Shown one piece after another: positions 8,577 through 19,368 of a stretch of DNA of 24,000 bases. The notes under the pieces were generated by a model that worked only from the letters and a program-made list of their open reading frames with translations, searched no databases and was not told the origin of the DNA. The DNA comes from an uncultured Desulfurococcaceae archaeon (GTDB taxonomy: Archaea; Thermoproteota; Thermoprotei_A; Sulfolobales; NBVN01): NCBI GenBank assembly GCA_964404265.1, contig CAYOJG010000010.1, positions 15,411 to 39,410 on the forward strand. The letters are read 5' to 3'. The position numbers and the translations under genes are program-made. How positions within the stretch are numbered: the first letter of the stretch is position 1; each line of letters starts with the position of its first letter.

Positions 8577-9116
8577 TTGCGGGACTATGAGGACGTGTTG
8601 GAGTGGTATGAGTCCATAGCGCCTTCCTATGATGAGCTTTACTCAGCCGAGCAGAGGGGGAAGTATAGGGAAGCTTTTAGGTATCTGGAGGATGTTGATG
8701 GTAAGGTTGTTTATGATTTGGGTTGCGGTACATCGGAATTTCTTCTCTACCTCTCGAAGAAAGACAGGATTAAAGCGTATGTAGGTCTAGACATATCACT
8801 TAATCTGTTGGTGAGGGCTGCGAATAAGGCTAAGGATCTCCCTACCCCCTCCTTCTTTGTGGCGGGAGATATTTCCAGCCCTCCATTCCGCGAAGGATCT
8901 GGAGACATAGCTGCAGCCTTCACGGTTCTGAGGTGCAGGGATGACTTAGAATTAGTCACTTCACGGATGAGGACCCTCCTCAGAAGAGGGGGGAGGCTTG
9001 TGGTGACTGTGCTGTGTGAGGAGGGTGCCGATTCTATTCCTCCCGGTTGGTGTAGGGGGAGCTTCAAAACACTGAACCGGAGGGAGGGGATGTGTGTGGA
9101 GGTGGTTGATGAGTGA
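8577..9116 (+). CDS. class I SAM-dependent methyltransferase
   Basis: SAM-binding motif I VYDLGCGTSEF, post-I acidic GLDIS and motif II-like FVAGDISSPPF. TTG start. The stop overlaps the start of the next gene. Confidence 0.75.
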   Translation: MRDYEDVLEWYESIAPSYDELYSAEQRGKYREAFRYLEDVDGKVVYDLGCGTSEFLLYLSKKDRIKAYVGLDISLNLLVRAANKAKDLPTPSFFVAGDISSPPFREGSGDIAAAFTVLRCRDDLELVTSRMRTLLRRGGRLVVTVLCEEGADSIPPGWCRGSFKTLNRREGMCVEVVDE

Positions 9117-11062
9117 GTGGGTTGAGGAGGAAGAACTCCCTCACCTCTCTGGATGTGGCGGTACTGGTTGAGGAGCTTAACCAAGTGCTGGGCGGTGGAC
9201 GCATAGATAATATATATGCTTCCGCCACGGGAGCTCTCCTATTCAAGGTTAGGGATAGAGAGGGCTCCCTCATCTACCTGCTGGTGGAGGAGGGTAGGAG
9301 GATCCATCTAACTAAATACATTGCTAAGGGGGAGTTGAGGGGGAGGATCCCTCTCTTCCGGAGGTTTCTTAGGGATGGCCAGGTTCAGGGGGTTAGGCAG
9401 TTCCGTTTCGAGAGAATAGCAGAGTTCTCTATTAGGAAGGGCGGTTCTTCACTCACTCTCGTCACTGAACTCATGCCTAGAGGTGTTGCGGTTGTTGTGG
9501 ATTCATCAGGGAAGGTTCTTGTGTCTAGTAAAGACCTTCACCTTAAGGATAGGGTCGTGAGGCCCGGGATTACCTATGAGCACCCACCGACATTTCCCGA
9601 CCCTAGGGAATTAGGGGTTGAGGAATGGCTTTCCCGGCTGGGAAGCGGCGGCACCTTAGGGAGGGCGCTTGTCAAGTCCCTTGGAATCCCTCCGGAGGTG
9701 GTTAACGAGTCCCTCCCTGAGGATATGCGTGCGTTACCTGTTGAGGGCCTGGATACAGACACTGTGAGGCAGGTTCGGGAGAAGGTGTTAGGGTTCATCG
9801 CCAATGTACTAAGAAACCCGTCCCCCGTAGTGGTTCTATGCGGGGAAGACCCTATAGGTTTCTACCCCTTCAGACCCTCCATAATTCCTGAAGGTTGTGA
9901 GGTTAAGAACTTCCAATCAATGAATGAGGCCGTCGACGAATTCTTCTCCTCACTACTCAGGAGGTCAGGGGTCGGTAGTGGTGAGGTCGGGGAGGAGGGT
10001 AGGGCGAGGAGGACTTTGGAGAAGGCGTTAAGGAATCTTGCCAGCAGTAGGGAGGCGCTTAAGAGGCACGTTAAGGAGCTTGAGCTTTTTGAAAGGAACT
10101 ACGCCGTGCTTGAGGATGTGTGGAGATGTGTGAGAAGAGTTGTTAAGGATGAGGGCTGGGGGAAGGTTCCTGAGGCATGTGGTGTTGAGGCATACGACCC
10201 CAGTAAAGGAGTTTTCTCTGTCAAGGCCGGGGACTCCTTAATCACCCTCACAGTTAAGTCGAGTGTTAAGGAGCAGTACTTCGAGCTTAGGAGGAGGGTG
10301 GCTTCCCTAAGGAAGAAGATCGTTAGGGCAGAGGAGGCGGTTAAGGAGCTTGAAGCCAAGCTTAAGGAGGCTGAGGAGGCTAGGATGAGGGAGGAGGAGC
10401 GGAAGACCCTCGTAATGAGGCGCGAGTGGTATTCTCAGTACCACTGGATCAGGACTTCTTCGGGATTCATTGCGGTGGGCGGTAAGGACGCTCAGCAGAA
10501 TGAGAAGGTTGTGAGGAAGTACCTCACACCTAAAGACATCTTTATCCATGCGGATGTTAGGGGAGCTTCAGTATTCGTGGTTAAGTGTGGAGGCTCCCTC
10601 CCGCCTGAGGAGGATTTGAGGGAGGTGGGGACTCTTGCAGTGTCCTACAGCCGGGCATGGAGGGAAGGTGTGGGGGCTCTGGACGCATACTGGGTTTGGG
10701 GGGAGCAGGTGAGTAAGTCACCGCCTCCCGGACAGTTTCTGCCCACCGGCTCCTTCATGGTTTACGGTAGGAAGAACTTCCTGAGAGGCCTCAGGCTTGA
10801 GCTGAGTATAGCCTTAAGGATTACAGGAGACTCCACCTACGAAGTAGTTATAGGGCCTCCACACTATGTTAAAGGTCTTGAAGGGGTTAAGGCCTACGTA
10901 ACCATAGTTCCTGGAGACAGGAGCAGGGCGAGTGTGGCTAAGGAATTCATTAACTTAGTGTCTGGACTTCCCTACAGGTTCATAGGTCTAAGCCCGGACG
11001 AGTTAATGGCTAGGATTCCGGGCGAGAGCAGAATTATCGACAGGTTTGTTGCCGCGGATTAA
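9113..11062 (+). CDS. NFACT family protein (FbpA/Rqc2/NEMF-like; NFACT-N plus coiled coil plus NFACT-R/DUF814)
   Basis: N-terminus LTSLDVAVLVEELNQ.LGGGRIDNIY matches the NFACT-N pattern. There is a central Glu/Lys/Arg coiled coil (VRAEEAVKELEAKLKEAEEARMREEE). The DUF814-like segment is WIRTSSGFIAVGGKDAQQNEKVV...DIFIHADVRGASVFVV. About 649 aa, as in archaeal homologues. Confidence 0.85.
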   Translation: MSGLRRKNSLTSLDVAVLVEELNQVLGGGRIDNIYASATGALLFKVRDREGSLIYLLVEEGRRIHLTKYIAKGELRGRIPLFRRFLRDGQVQGVRQFRFERIAEFSIRKGGSSLTLVTELMPRGVAVVVDSSGKVLVSSKDLHLKDRVVRPGITYEHPPTFPDPRELGVEEWLSRLGSGGTLGRALVKSLGIPPEVVNESLPEDMRALPVEGLDTDTVRQVREKVLGFIANVLRNPSPVVVLCGEDPIGFYPFRPSIIPEGCEVKNFQSMNEAVDEFFSSLLRRSGVGSGEVGEEGRARRTLEKALRNLASSREALKRHVKELELFERNYAVLEDVWRCVRRVVKDEGWGKVPEACGVEAYDPSKGVFSVKAGDSLITLTVKSSVKEQYFELRRRVASLRKKIVRAEEAVKELEAKLKEAEEARMREEERKTLVMRREWYSQYHWIRTSSGFIAVGGKDAQQNEKVVRKYLTPKDIFIHADVRGASVFVVKCGGSLPPEEDLREVGTLAVSYSRAWREGVGALDAYWVWGEQVSKSPPPGQFLPTGSFMVYGRKNFLRGLRLELSIALRITGDSTYEVVIGPPHYVKGLEGVKAYVTIVPGDRSRASVAKEFINLVSGLPYRFIGLSPDELMARIPGESRIIDRFVAAD

Positions 11063-11103: not shown

Positions 11104-11904
11104 TTGCGTGTTAAGTCATTTCTAGATCCTCACTACCCTAAGGTATCTCCTGAGGATCTTCTCACTCACGCCCGCGCGGTTTTCCGGGATCTCGCCCTCA
11201 GAATGCTCCCTGTGGTTAACAGGGAAAGGAAGCTTGAGGGCGTGCTCACCAGGGAGTCAGTCCTTGCCCTATCATCCACACGCTCCAACGCGTTAGTTAG
11301 GGACGTTATGGATAATCCTCCCCTCAGCTTCAAGCCGGATGAGGATGCCTTCAAGGCTTTCGAGGTTATGATAGAGTTCGACGAGTGGTATGTTCCGGTC
11401 GTGGATGAGGCGAGGGGGAGGTTTCAGGGTATTCTCTCGCTGGATTCCTTCCTGCGGTATGTTATTAGGAGGGATCATCCGGCCCACTCAACACCTGTGG
11501 AGGAGGTTATGAGTAGGGAGGTCGAGTTCTTCACTCCGGAGGAGTTTATTGCTAAGGTGTGGAGGAAAATGACGCAGCTGAGGTTCAGCGGATTCCCTGT
11601 GGTTAAGGGGAAGAACAGGGTTGTTGTGGGTATTATAACGCAGCACGACCTGCTTAGGAAAGGGTATACTCGGATAGAGCTGGAGTCGGACTCCGGCCCC
11701 AGGCCTGGGCCTAAAGTGAAGGAAGCCATGAACTCTCCGGCAATCACTGTTAATTTGAAGGGAACGCTGAAGGACGCTACCTTCCTAATGGTTAAGCATG
11801 ATATTGGCAGGATCCCGGTGGTTAATGATAAGGGAGAGTTGCAGGGACTTATTGACAGGAGCGATGCCTGCTCTTTTTACCTTAAGTCCGGAGGTTCTCG
11901 TTAG
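11104..11904 (+). CDS. CBS domain protein (four CBS motifs, no other domain), paralogue A
   Basis: Four repeats of the CBS pattern, for example LPVVNRERKLEGVLT, VPVVDEARGRFQGILS, FPVVKGKNRVVVGIIT and IPVVNDKGELQGLID. TTG start, uncertain. Confidence 0.8.
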   Translation: MRVKSFLDPHYPKVSPEDLLTHARAVFRDLALRMLPVVNRERKLEGVLTRESVLALSSTRSNALVRDVMDNPPLSFKPDEDAFKAFEVMIEFDEWYVPVVDEARGRFQGILSLDSFLRYVIRRDHPAHSTPVEEVMSREVEFFTPEEFIAKVWRKMTQLRFSGFPVVKGKNRVVVGIITQHDLLRKGYTRIELESDSGPRPGPKVKEAMNSPAITVNLKGTLKDATFLMVKHDIGRIPVVNDKGELQGLIDRSDACSFYLKSGGSR

Positions 11905-11917
11905 GAGGTGGGATTAA

Positions 11918-12841
11918 TTGAAGGTTTATACTCCCCGCCGTGTGCGGGAAAGGAATAGGTGGTTGAGGAGCGATGGGAAGCCTAACTTCAGTTCACGGGT
12001 ACATGAGAAGCCGCCGGAGCTTGAACCCATATTGAGGAGGGACGCCCCTACAGCCACCTCATCCACAAACATTCTGAGGGTCTGTGAGCTAATGACTCAG
12101 GAAAGGGTTAGGCTAGTCCCGATAGTCACTCCCGATAATTCCGTGGAAGGAGTTGTCACAGGGATGGACATTATTGACTTCTTGGGCGGTGGACCGAAGC
12201 ATAGACTGGTTGAGAGCAGGGGCTACACACTCATCTATAAAGTTCTCGACATTCCTGTCGGGGAAATTATGGAGAAGAGGGCGATAGTGGCTGATGTGGA
12301 TATGAAGCTCACCGAGGTTCTGGAGCTCATGATTAGGGAGGGCGTGGGTGCACTGCCCGTCGTCAGTAAGAGAGGTTTTGAGGGGGTTATTACTGAGAGA
12401 GAGTTGATGAAGTACCTGGCCGGGAAGCCTGTGGGGGTTAAGGTGGGTGAGGTCATGACTAAGGAAGTCATTACTGTCCCCCAGAATCTAACAGTGCTTG
12501 ACGCGATGAAGCTAATGGTTGAGACGGGGGTGAGGAGGCTTCCAGTGACTGAGGACGGCGTGGTTAAGGGAATTCTGGTGTGGAGGGGTGTTGTGGACTA
12601 TGTGGGGACGCATAAGATATTCGAGGAGCTGAGCAGCCAGTCCATATTCGAGTTCTATTCCTTCCCAATAACTAAGGTTATGAGGAGGGAGGTGGTGACA
12701 GCTTCTGAGGATATGGATCTTGGGGACGCGGCGCAACTGATGTTTGACAGGAACGTGGGTTCCCTGCTGGTTACTGAGGACACTGTTCTGAAGGGGATCA
12801 TTACTGAGAGGGACATTATTTACGGGCTTGTGGCGAGGTGA
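11918..12841 (+). CDS. CBS domain protein (four CBS motifs), paralogue B, with a basic N-terminal extension
   Basis: CBS repeats LVPIVTPDNSVEGVVT, LPVVSKRGFEGVIT, LPVTEDGVVKGIL and LLVTEDTVLKGIIT. The first ~45 aa (from TTG 11918) are Arg/Lys-rich, so the true start may be further downstream. Confidence 0.75.
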   Translation: MKVYTPRRVRERNRWLRSDGKPNFSSRVHEKPPELEPILRRDAPTATSSTNILRVCELMTQERVRLVPIVTPDNSVEGVVTGMDIIDFLGGGPKHRLVESRGYTLIYKVLDIPVGEIMEKRAIVADVDMKLTEVLELMIREGVGALPVVSKRGFEGVITERELMKYLAGKPVGVKVGEVMTKEVITVPQNLTVLDAMKLMVETGVRRLPVTEDGVVKGILVWRGVVDYVGTHKIFEELSSQSIFEFYSFPITKVMRREVVTASEDMDLGDAAQLMFDRNVGSLLVTEDTVLKGIITERDIIYGLVAR

Positions 12842-13698
12842 ATGAGATGCCTCCAAGAGTATCGACATATATGAGCAGGCCTGTCATTACCGCAACGAAG
12901 AACGACAGTCTGGCCCACGTCAGGAACCTCATGATTAGGCACAAGATAGGGAAGGTCGTCATAACTGATGATAAAGGTAGGGAAATTCTCGGTATAATAA
13001 GTAAGAGTGACTTCGTCAGAATTGTGTATAATAGGAAGCGATACGTTAAGCCTCTATCAGCGATAATGGCCTACGAAATAATGACTACGCCTGTATACGC
13101 GATTCATGACAGTAAAACCATTAAGGCAGCTGCGCAGGCCATGCTTAAGAGGGGTATCGGTTCCCTAGTTATTCTGGATCCTGAAGGTGTTCCGGAAGGC
13201 ATAATCACTAAGGCGGACCTTGTTAGGGCATTTGCAGAGAGGTACTTCGGCCATTTCAAGGTGAGTGAATTCATGAGTGAGAAGGTTCCTGTGGTCCATC
13301 TTACTCACAGCCTTTACTACGTGATTGACCTCATGAACGATTCCGGGTTAGGGAAGGTCGTGGTTACGGAAGGGAATAAACCGATAGGCGTCATAACGAA
13401 GTCGGACATAATGTTCCTCAATATCGAGATGACTATAAGGAGGAGGGTTAAGTACTATAAGAAGGCCGGGATTGTTGGAAGAGGTTTTGAGGGTTCCGTC
13501 AGGTTCTACACCATTCCGCTGGCAGGGGACCTAATGACTCCTGACCCGATAACCGCCAGGCCGTCTGACGATCTTGCCCTAGCCGCCGACGTGATGGTGA
13601 AGAACCGTATAGGGACTCTACCAATCGTTGATGAGCACGGTTATTTAGTCGGCCTCCTCACAAAGAAGGACATAATTAAGGCTTTAAGGAGGGTGTGA
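12838..13698 (+). CDS. CBS domain protein (four CBS motifs), paralogue C
   Basis: CBS repeats KVVITDDKGREILGIIS, LVILDPEGVPEGIIT, KVVVTEGNKPIGVIT and LPIVDEHGYLVGLLT. The GTGA start/stop overlaps paralogue B. Confidence 0.85.
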   Translation: MNEMPPRVSTYMSRPVITATKNDSLAHVRNLMIRHKIGKVVITDDKGREILGIISKSDFVRIVYNRKRYVKPLSAIMAYEIMTTPVYAIHDSKTIKAAAQAMLKRGIGSLVILDPEGVPEGIITKADLVRAFAERYFGHFKVSEFMSEKVPVVHLTHSLYYVIDLMNDSGLGKVVVTEGNKPIGVITKSDIMFLNIEMTIRRRVKYYKKAGIVGRGFEGSVRFYTIPLAGDLMTPDPITARPSDDLALAADVMVKNRIGTLPIVDEHGYLVGLLTKKDIIKALRRV

Positions 13699-14504
13699 GG
13701 TTGAGCCTCGACTTTATGACCATTGGGGAGTTAGGGACGAAGGATTTCCTACGCGTCAATAAGAACGACTCCATCTCTGGTGTAATTAAGGAGATGAGTA
13801 AGGAAGGTGTTGATAGGGCGTTAGTGTATTCTGACGATGAGCCTGAGGGTATAGTGACTAAGAAAGATATTGTGTCTAGGGTGGGCAGCAGTAGGAGGAG
13901 ACGTATACCCCCCTCATCACTGCATGTGTCCTCCTTCATGTCTTTCCCGCTGCTCATTCTTCCTGAGGACACTCTCATCAGTAAAGCGGCGAGAGTGATG
14001 CTGGATGCGGGCATTAGCAGTATTCCTGCTCACAGGAACCGTGAAGTAATCTCCCTGTTCAGCAAGTGGGATATTGCGAAGGTCCTCATTAAGGAGGCGT
14101 CTCCTATCGAGGACATTATGTCTAGGAAGGTTGTGTGGATCATGGAGGATGACTCCTTGATTAAGGCTAGGAAGCTTATGGTTGAGGGAGGACTGTCAAC
14201 ACTCCCAGTCATGAATGCAGACGGAAAGGTGATAGGGATACTTACTGTGACTGAGCTTATGGATGCGTTAATAGAGATTCTTGATGTTTTAGCGGAGTCG
14301 GGTGCTAGGGACGCCCTCAAAAGGATCAGGGTAGGGGAGATTATGAGGCCATTAATTCCTTCACTAAGGCCCGACGATGCTATAGGTATGGCTGCGGCGT
14401 TAATGATTGAGAAATCGATTAGGGGTGTGCTAGTAATGAATGAGGAGGGGGTTTTAGAGGGCTTAGTTACGCTCACTGACCTGACAAGGTTTGTGGTTAA
14501 GTAG
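13695..14504 (+). CDS. CBS domain protein (four CBS motifs), paralogue D
   Basis: CBS repeats ALVYSDDEPEGIVT, IPAHRNREVISLFS, LPVMNADGKVIGILT and VLVMNEEGVLEGLVT. The GTGA start/stop overlaps paralogue C. Confidence 0.85.
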   Translation: MRLSLDFMTIGELGTKDFLRVNKNDSISGVIKEMSKEGVDRALVYSDDEPEGIVTKKDIVSRVGSSRRRRIPPSSLHVSSFMSFPLLILPEDTLISKAARVMLDAGISSIPAHRNREVISLFSKWDIAKVLIKEASPIEDIMSRKVVWIMEDDSLIKARKLMVEGGLSTLPVMNADGKVIGILTVTELMDALIEILDVLAESGARDALKRIRVGEIMRPLIPSLRPDDAIGMAAALMIEKSIRGVLVMNEEGVLEGLVTLTDLTRFVVK

Positions 14505-14506
14505 TT

Positions 14507-15211
14507 TTATTCCTCCAGAACTCTTTTAGCTTCCTCAACCAGCTCTATCCCCTTACTAGCCCCTATGACGTCGGCGCCTGAAGCAAGCAGGATGGCTGCG
14601 TCCAAGGCCGTTCTGATACCGCCGGATGCCTTAACCCTTAACTCCTCGCCGACGGCCGACCTGATTATGTGTATGTCCCTCAGGTTAACACCCCTCGGCC
14701 CGAAGCCTGTATTGGTCTTAATGAAGTCGGCGCCAGAGGAAAGGACGAGCCTGGCCGCCTTCCTCAACTCCTCCTCACTCAGGATGCTTGTCTCAACAAT
14801 TATTTTAGTGCCTAGACCAAGCTCCTTACTGAACCCGACGAGTTCCCTAGCCTCATTCTCAACCTCCTCAAACCTGCCTGACTTAAGAAGCACTAAATTA
14901 ATCACTATATCCACTTCCTTACCTCCTCCCTCAGCAATAGCTTCAATATCCGCCTTCTTACTCTTCACCGGCTGGTAACCGTAAGGAAACCCAGCCACAC
15001 CTGCAACAGTCATGCTGGTTATTCCGGCCACGTACTTAACCATGAATGGAGGCACTACAAGAGCCCTGAATCCGTAGGGCTCAGACCTCTCAACAAACTT
15101 CTCATAGTCCTGAAGCCCCCTATCATACTTAAGCATGGTTTGGTCAATCCTTGACGCCAAACTAGTCAAGTAAGGGATAAGGTACTCACCCAACCTAAGC
15201 AATCCAATCAC
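14507..15211 (-). CDS. deoC: deoxyribose-phosphate aldolase (DERA)
   Basis: IDQTMLK near the N-terminus. Schiff-base lysine context ADFIKTNTGF and VKASGGIRT are typical of class I DERA. About 234 aa. The GTG start at 15211 overlaps the top6A stop by 17 nt. Confidence 0.85.
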   Translation of the reverse strand: MIGLLRLGEYLIPYLTSLASRIDQTMLKYDRGLQDYEKFVERSEPYGFRALVVPPFMVKYVAGITSMTVAGVAGFPYGYQPVKSKKADIEAIAEGGGKEVDIVINLVLLKSGRFEEVENEARELVGFSKELGLGTKIIVETSILSEEELRKAARLVLSSGADFIKTNTGFGPRGVNLRDIHIIRSAVGEELRVKASGGIRTALDAAILLASGADVIGASKGIELVEEAKRVLEE

Positions 15212-17792
15212 CCGTCTGAATCTTCTCCGGAATATAAGTATCCATCAGAAACCTTAACCCTTTGCTAGTCAAGGCCTCGATCTCCAGCTTAGACTTATAC
15301 TTCTTGAATATATCTAGCTCCACTAACCATCTCTTCGTCTTGAACCACGGGTAAGCCCTAAGCTCCTTAGCCCTCTTAAGGTCGCGGTCATTAGCCTTAA
15401 TGATGTAGTTCCTTCTCTCCGCCTCCGAGAGATACGGGTTCTTCTTAAGCTTCCTACTCCCGTAAATATCAGAAGGTAAAACACCAATCAGCCTAGCCGA
15501 CGGGGTAGCAAGCCTCTCGCTCTCATAAGAAAGCGTAATAGAACCAACCTTGAATACACTGAAGATATACCACCCGTAAGGGTCACTATTATGGTAAACT
15601 ATTCCGTAGCCGCCGATGAAGGAGTTCGTTTCTGGTACTGCGAAGTCATATACGTATCCTTCATAATCTTCTTCCTCAACAGAAATGACTCTCGCGAGTG
15701 TAGCGTCACCTCCCACTAGCGTCCCGTAGCTTGCTGGAAGCTGGAGGAGCTTCTGAGATGTTAGGAGAGCCAGTTTTGCTTTAGATATTGTTCTGTTCTT
15801 AGTGGAGTATGAGGTCGCTCTCTTATTCATTAGTTTGATTAGGTCCTTCCTTAGTCCTTGGCTTATAGGTAGACCATATGTGGGTTCACTGGCTGGGAAG
15901 ATTCCGGGCTCTCTTCCGCTGAAGTAACTATAGGTCTCTGGAGGAGTTCTTGACCTGCTCTTCCCTATCCTTATAACTATGTCGTCCCCGTTCCTCACTA
16001 CGGAGGGGTTAACTCCCAGCGACAGGAGAAGGAGGAAGACCTGTTTTGAAAGGACCTCACTCCTCGTTGAATAAACTATGTTTTCATATCTATCTATACT
16101 TCCATCACCGTCGAATAAACCCTTAAGATAAGCTGCGATCACACTTCTGCCTGAATTAATTATTATGGGTGGCACTCTCTTAGTTCTGGCCGTTCCTAGA
16201 AGCCCTATAGCCTTGAAAAGGAGGTATAGGATTCGGGACGCTATAATGACACTTACTCCTTTCTTCCCGTGTTTTATCACTGGCCTTACTCCGAACCTGC
16301 TCTCGATTATGTCGGCGATGCGGGAGGCCTTCTCTCCCTCCCTCGGGCCTAGGCTAAACCTCAGATATCTTCCTCTATACCCGTTGCCTTCAGCTGTGAA
16401 GAGCCCAAAGACCCATGCAATATCTTCATCTACTATTACTTTATTCATTACTTTCTTCTTTGAACGCGAGATTGATACGTAGTCTGCTTCTCTCAGGTAA
16501 TTATCTGCAGCATCTTCCAGCCTTACTTCCTTACCTGAAGCATCAATTACCTTAATGGTTCTACATAGGTGCTGGTTTCCTTCATAGTTGCAGATGTACT
16601 CCTTCAGTGTTTCAGAAACTCTTATTGTGGGGTATTCAATGCTGTTGCCTAAATCCAGCCTTTCAGAGACGAGTATGTAGTCTCCAGGCCTTATTCTGTG
16701 GGCAGGCTCAACAACTATTTTTCCGTTACGGAATACGAAGAGGGAATGTCCCTTAGTAACCCGTACAGGTCCTCTTCCTTTGAGCCTGATCTTCAGTAAT
16801 TTATCCTTGATATAATGGCGGTACATATACCCTATGGGGTCCCACCTAATTTTTCCAGTTACAGGGTCCCACGACATTGTCGCGAGGGGGGCGATCGCTC
16901 TTTCCTTCAATTGATTCTTCTTGAAATATTTGCCTACAATCTCCTCAACAGGTCCTATCATTACCTGATCTGTGGTAAGGTCCTTCACCACAACTACTTC
17001 GTCCGCAGGCACACTATCCGTAAGTATATATATGGGGAGGCCTAGTTCCTCGTTTAGTCTCCTGACGAATCTCCTGGTTGCCCTGTCGGGCTGGCCCGCG
17101 CTGGTTATTAGGAGGGCTTTATATTTTTTCCAGAATCCTGCTCTGTGCAGTTGCTGGAACACTGCATCCTTCTCTATTACTAGGACGAATTCTGCGTTAA
17201 CCTCCTTGAATTCTATGAAGTCGGGGGTTGGTTCGATGGAGTAGGCTCCGTGGCCCATCTTGCTTAGGTCGATTATGTCGTCGCCGGACCTTATCTTCAT
17301 TTCCCCGACTACCTTCCCTTTCTCTTTGCTCAGGATCAGCATCTGCTCCCTCAGCATGTCAATAAGTACCTCAACGTCCCTGATGACGGAGTCGGACTCC
17401 TTCTGCTCTTCCCACGTGTTCTCCTGCTTAACCCTTCCAGATATTGGGTCTCTGAACCTTATGGTGTGCTTACCTCTGTAGTAAAGATCTCTTATTGTTG
17501 GGTATTCATTGTTTGCTAATGCCTCGTAGATTATGCTCGCCATAAGGATAGTCTGCATGAATTTCTTTGACTCTCCCGCGTTAAGGAATGATCTCTTAAG
17601 GGTTGCCTTACCTATCCGCAATATCCCTTTCTCAGCGTCGAAAACTGTGTTCGCTAAAGTGCGCTTCCTTATAACTAGTTTAGGTGTTTTTCCTTCCAGA
17701 ATGTCTTTAGCCAGCTTCCTGAATGACCTCTTAAGCTTTTTGAGGGCTTCCTTCCTTGCTTTCAGATCAACTGAGGATATATAGTAAGCCAT
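15195..17792 (-). CDS. top6A: DNA topoisomerase VI subunit A (Spo11 homologue) interrupted by an in-frame intein
   Basis: N-extein carries the 5Y-CAP segment PTIRDLYYRGK and the Toprim glutamate VLVIEKDAVF. The Toprim motif ILTD | SDPYGWYIF is split by 476 aa. Exteins sum to about 389 aa, the normal Top6A size. The ATG at 17792 is preferred over the ORF-track TTG at 17810, which overlaps top6B. Confidence 0.93.
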   Translation of the reverse strand: MAYYISSVDLKARKEALKKLKRSFRKLAKDILEGKTPKLVIRKRTLANTVFDAEKGILRIGKATLKRSFLNAGESKKFMQTILMASIIYEALANNEYPTIRDLYYRGKHTIRFRDPISGRVKQENTWEEQKESDSVIRDVEVLIDMLREQMLILSKEKGKVVGEMKIRSGDDIIDLSKMGHGAYSIEPTPDFIEFKEVNAEFVLVIEKDAVFQQLHRAGFWKKYKALLITSAGQPDRATRRFVRRLNEELGLPIYILTDSVPADEVVVVKDLTTDQVMIGPVEEIVGKYFKKNQLKERAIAPLATMSWDPVTGKIRWDPIGYMYRHYIKDKLLKIRLKGRGPVRVTKGHSLFVFRNGKIVVEPAHRIRPGDYILVSERLDLGNSIEYPTIRVSETLKEYICNYEGNQHLCRTIKVIDASGKEVRLEDAADNYLREADYVSISRSKKKVMNKVIVDEDIAWVFGLFTAEGNGYRGRYLRFSLGPREGEKASRIADIIESRFGVRPVIKHGKKGVSVIIASRILYLLFKAIGLLGTARTKRVPPIIINSGRSVIAAYLKGLFDGDGSIDRYENIVYSTRSEVLSKQVFLLLLSLGVNPSVVRNGDDIVIRIGKSRSRTPPETYSYFSGREPGIFPASEPTYGLPISQGLRKDLIKLMNKRATSYSTKNRTISKAKLALLTSQKLLQLPASYGTLVGGDATLARVISVEEEDYEGYVYDFAVPETNSFIGGYGIVYHNSDPYGWYIFSVFKVGSITLSYESERLATPSARLIGVLPSDIYGSRKLKKNPYLSEAERRNYIIKANDRDLKRAKELRAYPWFKTKRWLVELDIFKKYKSKLEIEALTSKGLRFLMDTYIPEKIQTGDWIA
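15588..17015 (-). mobile_element. intein with LAGLIDADG homing-endonuclease domain inside top6A
   Basis: Begins with Ser (SVPADEVVVV, block A). Block B is VTKGH (TxxH). LAGLIDADG motifs are IAWVFGLFTAEGNG (16380-16421) and AAYLKGLFDGDGSI (16095-16136). Blocks F/G are VYDFAVPETNSFIGGYGIVYHN, followed by the +1 Ser of SDPYG. Length is 1428 nt (476 aa), in frame. Confidence 0.9.
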
Positions 17793-17802
17793 GAATCCAC
17801 AC

Positions 17803-19368
17803 CTACTCAATGCTTAGAACTATGTCCTCAAGCGAAGAAATCTTGAATGCTTTAAGCCTCATATTAAGCATCTTGAGAAGCTCCTTCTTAATCATGTCCT
17901 CATTAACATTACCAACAATCTTGGCCAACCCCCTAGAAACGTCCGGGATGTACTTAGCTATAGCTATTGCTTTCTCAACCTCTTCCCTCTCCCTCCTCTT
18001 CCTTGAGAGGTATCTCTTCAGCCTCCTCGCAACCTCCCTGACTGCTAGCTCGACCTCTTTCTCAACCTCGGGAACGTCGGCAACTGACTCCTTACCAACA
18101 CCCTTATACGGGATTTTAGTACTGCAGATATGGACGAGCACCACTAGCGGCGCCGGAAACACTACGCCATACCTTCCCCAGTCAATCCTGTCAACAACCT
18201 TCCTCGAGACGTCTGAGCCTTCATCGTAGAGAAGCGGGATCTTGTTAGCGTACCTGAAGAGAACGGGCTTGTCTGAGGGAGATATTTCCCCGCCGTAAGC
18301 AATTCCTGCCTCAACAATGAAGGCATGCCCTCCATGGACTGAAGGCTTCCTTGTGACGGCCTCGGTGAATTCAGGCTTAAGGATGGCTTTAAGCCCTGTC
18401 TTAATTATCTCTGCCCCGACGAAGGATAAGTGATCCCCTCTAGGGGGAAGTATTTTCTCCTCCTTAATCGCCTTAACAAGTTTCTCAATCTCGGCGGCAG
18501 TTATTTTAGAAGGGGGCTTCGTAGGTGATATACCTGCCCTAGCAAGGATTTTATCAGCCGTTACTGAGCCTACGTTCTGGAACTCGCTCATGAGGAATTT
18601 CTTAACGTTCTTTGCCTTAGTCACCGCAAGCATCATCTTAAGCATCTCTATGTCCACACCTTTAGGATGAGGCTTCACCTCCCTAGGAGGTATGGGGAGC
18701 CTGTTAGTGCTTCTCTCGAAATAAATCACTGTACCTTCAGGATTCTCGAAAACTATTTCCGCGTATGGAGCAATGATAGCAGTCCTTAAGAGGTAATCAT
18801 AAATCCTGCTCTTGGAACGTACCCAGTCACCCTCAAGATAAAGCTTAACTGAGGTCCCGTGCCACCCATCCCTCTTCTCGTATGACCCTACACGGAAGAT
18901 GGAGGGGGTGTTTGTCTTAACATCTATAGCGACCTGAAAGAAGTATATTTTCTTCCCCAGTATTGTTGAGGTAATGACCTCAACAGGTTTCCCGGTAGTC
19001 ATCTGTCCGTAGAGGACAGCCATCTTCGCGCCTAGGCCGAACATCCCTCTCGTCTGCCTCAGAACATACTTAGAGCTGTAGAGGAGCTGTCCGAAAGCTT
19101 TAGGAACATTTTTGGGGGGTATCCCTATGCCGTTATCCTCGACGCTAACGCTGAAGATCTTGCCTTCCTCATCCTCCTTCCTCATAATTATCTTGATTGT
19201 GGGTTTAATCATGTGGGAATCGGTAGCGTCTAGGGCGTTCTCAACAAGCTCCCTGACGGCCTGATATAGGGCCCTAACAGGGTTGCTGAAGCCTGCAAGC
19301 TCCCTGTTCCTGTAGAAAAACTCTGAGGGAGTAAGCGCCCTGAATCTTTCCGCTGTACTCTCAGTCAT
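17803..19368 (-). CDS. top6B: DNA topoisomerase VI subunit B (GHKL ATPase)
   Basis: Bergerat-fold motifs ELVENALDA (N box), DNGIGI (G1) and GMFGLGAKMA (G2). About 521 aa. Lies immediately upstream of top6A on the same strand. Confidence 0.93.
   Translation of the reverse strand: MTESTAERFRALTPSEFFYRNRELAGFSNPVRALYQAVRELVENALDATDSHMIKPTIKIIMRKEDEEGKIFSVSVEDNGIGIPPKNVPKAFGQLLYSSKYVLRQTRGMFGLGAKMAVLYGQMTTGKPVEVITSTILGKKIYFFQVAIDVKTNTPSIFRVGSYEKRDGWHGTSVKLYLEGDWVRSKSRIYDYLLRTAIIAPYAEIVFENPEGTVIYFERSTNRLPIPPREVKPHPKGVDIEMLKMMLAVTKAKNVKKFLMSEFQNVGSVTADKILARAGISPTKPPSKITAAEIEKLVKAIKEEKILPPRGDHLSFVGAEIIKTGLKAILKPEFTEAVTRKPSVHGGHAFIVEAGIAYGGEISPSDKPVLFRYANKIPLLYDEGSDVSRKVVDRIDWGRYGVVFPAPLVVLVHICSTKIPYKGVGKESVADVPEVEKEVELAVREVARRLKRYLSRKRREREEVEKAIAIAKYIPDVSRGLAKIVGNVNEDMIKKELLKMLNMRLKAFKISSLEDIVLSIE

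Follow-up and report, generated by a model that had tools for sequence, protein, structure and literature searches.

As a rule, inteins are found in the best-conserved catalytic motifs of enzymes that act on nucleic acids, those of DNA metabolism among them. Our subject is a very probable intein in top6A, which encodes subunit A of topoisomerase VI, the archaeal homolog of the meiotic break-maker Spo11; the gene lies in a stretch of 24,000 nucleotides from an uncultured Desulfurococcaceae archaeon (assembly GCA_964404265.1, contig CAYOJG010000010.1, positions 15,411 to 39,410), which we call the window and number from its first letter. Among solved structures, the best match to this intein is PI-PkoII, intein 2 of the Thermococcus kodakarensis DNA polymerase (2cw7/2cw8; E=4e-32 over intein residues 22-123 and 192-475). 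In both, a split HINT splicing domain encloses a LAGLIDADG endonuclease with two motifs, both are hyperthermophile inteins in DNA-metabolism enzymes, and the residues of blocks B, C, E, F, and G can be aligned between them. PI-PkoII differs in its host, a family B DNA polymerase, and in its insertion site, and the two share only ∼25-30% identity; in the window intein, by comparison, both the first residue and the one after the last are Ser.

Closer to topoisomerase VI itself, inteins have been catalogued in subunit B: Novikova et al. 2016 give 15 (PMC4760082), and Soucy et al. 2014 gives 8 (PMC4071816). These belong to the same enzyme complex as the window intein, but they reside in the GHKL ATPase subunit and come from Halobacteria and other Euryarchaeota. 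The topoisomerase hosts in these surveys include Top6B, TopA, GyrA/B, and reverse gyrase (PMC4760082, PMC4071816), and their main text does not name Top6A as an intein host. The one mention that our search found is in a methods section of another study, where inteins in "several" Top6A/Top6B sequences are said to have been removed by hand (PMC9348778). A mycobacteriophage TOPRIM (primase/topoisomerase) protein is reported to have an intein insertion at its active site (PMC5050341); the likeness to our case, compared by location only, is the active-site position in a Toprim fold, and the difference is that the host is a phage protein in a bacterial host. Our literature search found no paper naming a Top6A intein; InBase and the supplement of Novikova 2016 lay outside that search, and prior cataloguing is therefore possible. 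We regard the window element as an ordinary homing intein whose host protein and insertion site both appear to be uncatalogued. Its description adds Top6A to the intein hosts and fixes the insertion point precisely inside a catalytic metal-binding motif.

The insert covers positions 15588..17015 on the minus strand (476 codons), and translation and in-silico splicing gave exactly the coordinates that an earlier, first-pass annotation of this DNA had proposed. It begins with block A (SVPADEVVVV, 16986..17015), whose Ser1 codon (17013..17015) would supply the first nucleophile, and continues with block B (TKGH, 16746..16757; Thr87 and His90). At the other end stand block F (GYVYDFAVPETNSFIG, 15612..15659; Asp457 within VYDF) and block G with the +1 residue (GIVYHN, with His475 and Asn476, then Ser; 15585..15605). 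The +1 Ser codon itself (15585..15587) would provide the second nucleophile. Between the two halves of the splicing domain lie LAGLIDADG motif 1 (block C, IAWVFGLFTAEGNG, 16380..16421), which aligns with LAKLLGYYVSEG of PI-PkoII, and motif 2 (block E, AAYLKGLFDGDGSI, 16095..16136), which aligns with LAFLEGYFIGDGDV of the same protein; both keep the acidic residue that ends the motif (FTAEG with the catalytic Glu209, and FDGDG with the catalytic Asp304). In the window intein, both motifs also retain their glycines, and block D its Lys. Every class-1 hallmark that the first-pass annotation had listed, namely Ser1, the TxxH motif of block B, two LAGLIDADG motifs with their acidic residues, and His-Asn followed by Ser, was thus found, together with the block F Asp. 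Profile searches agreed at a level that chance would not produce: Pfam Intein_splicing (PF14890) matched the insert with E=2e-17 (63.7-65.8 bits; cutoff 35.8), LAGLIDADG_3 (PF14528) with E=3e-11 (43.9-46.1 bits; cutoff 22.5), and NCBIfam intein_Cterm with 27.2 bits (cutoff 15.6), while intein_Nterm reached 22.6-23.3 bits, just under its cutoff of 24.5. Several NCBIfam models of intein-containing precursors matched the window protein as well. We conclude with high confidence that the insert is a canonical class-1 intein, in which a LAGLIDADG homing endonuclease is embedded, in the chromosomal top6A of a hyperthermophilic, Desulfurococcales-type archaeon, and from the conservation of its residues we infer that it splices. 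The endonuclease likewise looks intact, and its activity is predicted on the same grounds. A thermostable Ser1/Ser+1 intein with a putative new LAGLIDADG specificity could also offer possible tools.

The boundaries follow from comparison with intein-free Top6A. The N-extein (17016..17792, 259 codons) holds the 5Y-CAP/winged-helix domain, an all-beta domain, and the first part of the Toprim domain, as assigned by Pfam and by alignment to 2zbk_A, 1d3y_A, and 2q2e_A, and ends in LPIYILTD. The C-extein (15198..15587, 130 codons) starts with SDPYGWYIF and holds the rest of the Toprim domain (profile positions 58-170) and the C-terminal helices, as seen in the alignment to 2zbk_A. Removing the intein in silico joins LPIYILTD to SDPYGWYIFSVFKVGS and yields a protein of 389 aa; with ↓ marking the insertion point or an intein boundary here and below, the spliced-out coding junction reads CTCCCCATATATATACTTACGGAT↓AGTGACCCTTACGGGTGGTATATC, and the intein-less site can also be written CTTACGGAT↓AGTGACCCTTACGG. 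In the syntenic ortholog L045, which bears an intein-free DADPYG allele, the junction is ACGGAC↓GCGGACCCGTACGG. The spliced window gene has 1170 nt, precisely the length of the L045 gene, with which it shares 75.6% nucleotide and 85% amino acid identity without a single indel. Both the placement of the boundaries and the claim that removal restores a 389-aa Top6A with its Toprim motif are therefore borne out by this collinear alignment.

An alternative is that the 476 residues form a lineage-specific accessory domain kept in mature Top6A, or that the gene is a disrupted pseudogene. The public annotation would sit well with this view: the window protein is 100% identical to database protein P0161, and NCBI names the members of the P0161 cluster only "MAG: hypothetical protein [Thermoprotei archaeon]". 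A search with the spliced exteins gave 1941 matches at E<=1e-30, and the best 120 of these (70-85% identity, 358-400 aa) were all intein-free, the fully syntenic L045 ortholog included, so the case that the first-pass annotation had named as refuting it, a lineage-wide domain, does not apply; the insert, moreover, is complete in its intein blocks and is matched by intein families. All 865 codons are read in one unbroken frame, and the C-extein shows no nonsynonymous change against its close relative L013. We rejected both versions in view of the intein-free homologs, the collinear L045 gene, and the conserved exteins, and consider the chance that either is right to be vanishingly small. For annotation the intein has a practical consequence. 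An intein-bearing top6A is labelled "hypothetical protein" at twice the expected length, and annotation pipelines and Top6A/Spo11 phylogenies need to splice the intein out.

Returning to the intein, the alignment places it directly after the first Asp of the Toprim DxD motif, ahead of the x. The spliced protein aligns over its full length with Sulfolobus shibatae Top6A (2zbk_A, E=4e-163), and its D259-S260-D261 align with D254-G255-D256 of Methanosarcina mazei Top6A (2q2e_A), in agreement with the earlier proposal that the first Asp is the -1 residue (codon 17016..17018) and the +1 Ser is the x. In M. mazei numbering, a 2026 cryo-EM study gives the Toprim acidic tetrad at the cleavage site as E202, D254, D256, and E342 (PMC13040014), and the Mg-binding residues of type IIB enzymes are the E and the DxD (PMC7671362). 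Since 476 residues separate two metal ligands close to the DNA channel, the precursor, with its Asp pair parted by a ∼54-kDa domain beside the DNA groove, is probably inactive for DNA cleavage. The proposal of the first-pass annotation that the subunit binds no catalytic metal before it splices is plausible for the same reason. The DSDPYG-type motif of the mature product is native in many intein-free homologs, with Ser at x in 56 of the 120 listed.

This position raises the question of a conditional switch, in which splicing dependent on temperature, DNA, or Top6B assembly gates topoisomerase VI cleavage post-translationally. In addition to the split metal site, the persistence in several lineages of endonuclease-less mini versions with all splicing residues would suit such a switch, as would conditional splicing reported for other archaeal DNA-metabolism inteins, for example that of Pyrococcus horikoshii RadA (cited in PMC8987985). 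The sporadic distribution, however, with the closest relatives intein-free, speaks against an indispensable regulatory role. Conservation of the homing site explains an active-site insertion equally well, and the usual redox trap is ruled out because neither position 1 nor +1 is a Cys. We consider a switch very unlikely.

The homing intein that we favor has many relatives. An intein search identified ∼26 Top6A clusters in which a homologous intein occupies exactly the same junction (TD↓S(I/V)P...HN↓SDPYG), with intein lengths of 260-489 aa, and a scan of one genome per GTDB species found the intein at the window site in ∼37 genomes, all of them metagenome-assembled genomes (MAGs) from Desulfurococcales/Desulfurococcaceae, "Sulfolobales", Acidilobaceae, Thermodiscus, Zestosphaera, and similar groups. 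Altogether, more than 40 other Top6A alleles, mostly from Desulfurococcales/Thermoprotei MAGs, carry homologous inteins here, which answers the question, left by the first-pass annotation, of whether other genomes have an intein at this site. Viral contigs were also scanned for a possible carrier; three weak, unrelated matches came up, and no viral vector was identified.

As a side observation, many of the MAG contigs with this intein (L001, L003, L004, L007, L013, L017, L020, L022, and L036) begin or end within it or close by; these assembly breaks could come from intein-plus/intein-minus polymorphism in the sampled populations.

We counted residue conservation over 33 alleles at the window site. 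Ser1, the block B Thr and His, the block F Asp, the terminal His-Asn, and the +1 Ser are each present in all 33. The LAGLIDADG acidic residues fare differently: that of motif 1 is retained in 17 of the 33 alleles and that of motif 2 in 16, with ∼15 alleles, the window copy among them, retaining both, and several inteins at this site have shrunk to 255-340 aa. Invariant splicing residues together with decayed endonucleases are, judged from these alignments, the pattern predicted for a classic homing cycle.

Intein and host appear uncoupled in these comparisons: the exteins closest to that of the window have either no intein or a distant one. Among the 190 pairs formed by 20 full-length alleles, intein and extein distances are uncorrelated (Spearman -0.08). 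The intein nearest to that of the window, in L001 (60% identity), resides in an extein that is only 69% identical, and L008, whose extein is the nearest of those with an intein (80% identity), has an intein of 48% identity. Composition differs only at third codon positions. The GC content at third codon positions (GC3) of the intein is 0.466, against 0.575 and 0.585 for the two exteins, and lies ∼4 SD below the 19 other window genes (0.576 ± 0.028; minimum 0.519). The sporadic distribution, the uncoupled distances, and the low GC3 are indirect support for homing.

Several observations weigh against this interpretation of the locus. Saturation of the fast-evolving intein could be part of the reason why the distances are uncorrelated. 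Overall GC is alike in the three segments (0.456 in the intein, 0.465 and 0.458 in the exteins). For the domain architecture, the sole basis is the alignment of its sequence to PI-PkoII. Alleles of the same population that lack the intein were not recovered, which leaves ongoing homing a conjecture.

The overall GC values also bear on an argument for foreign origin made in the first-pass annotation, which had contrasted four spot-checked lines. Those lines had been counted correctly (0.33, 0.37, 0.43, and 0.53) but are not representative of the whole segments, whose GC is equal. We rejected the argument from overall GC; composition as a sign of horizontal origin holds only for GC3, which takes its place.

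The relative with which we could compare the window intein most closely is L013, an uncultured Desulfurococcaceae MAG contig (97%-identical) whose intein shares 96% identity across its last 184 residues. In protein sequence the L013 C-extein matches that of the window exactly, and the downstream DNA has diverged by 3.1%. Counted in codon changes, the intein differs by 14 synonymous and 8 nonsynonymous changes, and the C-extein by 13 and none. The intein is constrained, less so than the host extein, given the 8 nonsynonymous changes against 0.

These counts matter for a further possibility, that the intein still splices but its endonuclease is inactive, making it a vertically inherited passenger in the window lineage that is no longer mobile. 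The presence of the same intein in so close a relative is consistent with vertical descent, nonsynonymous changes, which make up 8 of the 22 changed codons of the intein and none of the 13 in the extein, gather in the C-terminal intein half, and one or both LAGLIDADG acidic residues are gone from about half of the family, with several members reduced in length as described above. The window copy, on the other hand, is full length and retains both catalytic acidic residues (Glu209 and Asp304), the motif glycines, and the Lys of block D, and the ratio of changes against L013 still shows purifying selection on the region. Loss of mobility in this lineage is thus possible, though we find it doubtful, and we retain an intein with an apparently intact endonuclease as the preferred reading.

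The residue that follows the intein offers another view of the cycle. The motif is DADPYG in 22 of the 24 closest intein-free homologs (the Ala codon is GCG in L045), and Ser stands at +1 in every intein-bearing allele (AGY codons in 27, TCT in 6). Ser in all intein alleles fits either co-conversion in the course of homing or a nucleophile being required at +1. The two families of Ser codons are not interconvertible by a single substitution except via a non-Ser codon. Their mixture may point to separate origins, or to alleles having exchanged the sequence that flanks the intein. The Ser1 codons are likewise drawn from both the AGY and the TCT-type families.

The course of splicing and homing can be deduced from the conserved residues and the established chemistry of class-1 inteins. 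Aided by the block B Thr and His, Ser1 would undergo an N-O acyl shift, and the +1 Ser would then attack the ester in a transesterification. Cyclization of Asn476 to a succinimide, aided by His475 and the block F Asp457, would release the intein, and an O-N shift would restore a native peptide bond, giving the 389-aa Top6A with an intact D-S-D-P-Y-G metal site. The free intein would act as a site-specific endonuclease that cuts intein-free top6A at the highly conserved DxDPYG-coding sequence, and recombinational repair would copy the intein and its flanking Ser codon into the cut allele. In the family as a whole, splicing is strictly selected and the endonuclease decays, the usual course of invasion, fixation, decay, and loss.

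The motif is an intein hotspot, and the window site is not the only one used in this domain; at least four intein insertion points cluster around the Toprim acidic residues of Top6A. The second lies two codons downstream, after the second Asp (TDxD↓SIPP.E...(V/F)HN↓S(Y/F)G(W/F)YIY), with its +1 Ser at the Pro position of DxDPxG. The intein at this second site is homologous to the window intein (E=9e-29); at least 11 protein clusters have it, their hosts being Aenigmarchaeota-like and Thermofilum-like, with examples in L037:2566-4419 (Thermofilum sp. MAG NJEH01000019.1), L050:1623-4124, P0017, and P0149-P0159. P0018, whose extein is closely related to those of second-site hosts, carries the window-type site instead. 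Two metagenome Top6A proteins define further sites. In P0173 (residues 185-662) the intein lies two residues before the Toprim Glu (FVL↓CLPSFE...FSHN↓CIEKNA), and the DxD site is uninterrupted and reads TDADSYG; the Ser that replaces Pro there may be original to that lineage or the scar of a lost intein. In P0174 (residues 267-752) a distant intein lies just before the Thr of TDxD (LVF↓SVDGEE...CVHN↓TDGDPYG). In a crude neighbor-joining tree, built without support values, the window-type inteins fall mostly into one clade and the shifted-site inteins are basal.

A comparable arrangement is known from DnaB, whose insertion points a and c are two residues apart (PMC4760082). Like DnaB, Top6A packs several insertion points closely, in this case in one motif. 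The Top6A inteins at the two sites two codons apart are clearly homologous, and the comparison with DnaB a and c is one of spacing alone. It is conceivable that the intein is more than a parasite and gates the sole type II topoisomerase of these hyperthermophiles in response to temperature, DNA, or assembly with Top6B. A kindred reading in evolutionary terms treats TDxD(P/S) as a multi-site hotspot where one intein lineage has shifted by two codons to any position with a Ser nucleophile; we hold these readings to be unlikely. A post-translational gate of this kind, if true, would explain why endonuclease-less mini-inteins with perfect splicing residues persist. The Top6A intein changes no concept; the multi-site hotspot and the two-codon shift add some evolutionary interest. 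With more than 40 alleles in full, decayed, and mini form and at least four insertion points, Top6A provides a compact natural data set for the homing cycle and for site shifts.

The host gene is part of a top6B-top6A operon on the minus strand of the window. First comes top6B (17803..19368; Pfam Topo-VIb_trans and HATPase_c), which encodes the partner ATPase subunit and has no intein, and directly downstream is the top6A precursor gene (15195..17792, 865 codons plus stop), with N-extein, intein, and C-extein in one unbroken frame. The mechanically called open reading frame spans 15195..17810 and encodes 871 aa if a TTG is the start and 865 aa if translation begins with the ATG at 17792. The TTG at 17810 overlaps the end of top6B by 8 nt, and the ATG lies 10 nt past the top6B stop. 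The L045 ortholog (start MAYYISS) begins 11 nt past its own top6B, and because this 389-aa protein starts at the matching position, we take the ATG at 17792 as the likely true start of top6A. The lengths of 865 codons and 389 aa in the first-pass annotation are right from this ATG; its residue numbers 266-741 for the insert count from the TTG, and in ATG numbering the intein comprises residues 260-735.

Identification of the host as Top6A draws on several lines. The NCBIfam equivalog NF003336 matched with 629 bits in two stretches (cutoff 531), and Pfam assigned TP6A_N, Topo_VI_alpha, and TOP6A-Spo11_Toprim to the host part, with the Toprim domain again split in two stretches. The protein has a 5Y-CAP domain with the catalytic Tyr, as well as the Toprim Glu and DxD, and its gene adjoins top6B. 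The gene order around top6B-top6A recurs in L045, L046, and L050. In L045 the neighborhood is the same as in the window: IF-2B, tRNA endonuclease, HisRS, deoxyhypusine synthase, top6B, top6A, DeoC, four CBS genes, and NFACT. The four consecutive CBS-domain genes (window 11104-14504, plus strand) adjoin an NFACT-family gene (9113..11062), an arrangement kept in L045.

Two smaller observations concern other proteins found in the searches. In P0003, P0021, and P0022 and in L001-L007, L014, L034, and L035, the C-exteins measure 176-206 aa against 130 aa in the window; the difference consists of an extra ∼45-75 aa in the C-terminal part of the Toprim domain (e.g., KSLPMKKPYLSEKERRNFIIKAKPKDVERAVELIGYEVADICLDNKEMRDRIRRRKEGLAGYPWF) and is unrelated to the intein. 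Finally, the small subunit of replication factor C from Micrarchaeota (L039:2752-5085 and L041:2614-5004) holds a distant intein of 25% identity with the same GYVYDF...HN↓S ending, at the junction NAS↓V...LLHN↓SD(A/E)RGID.

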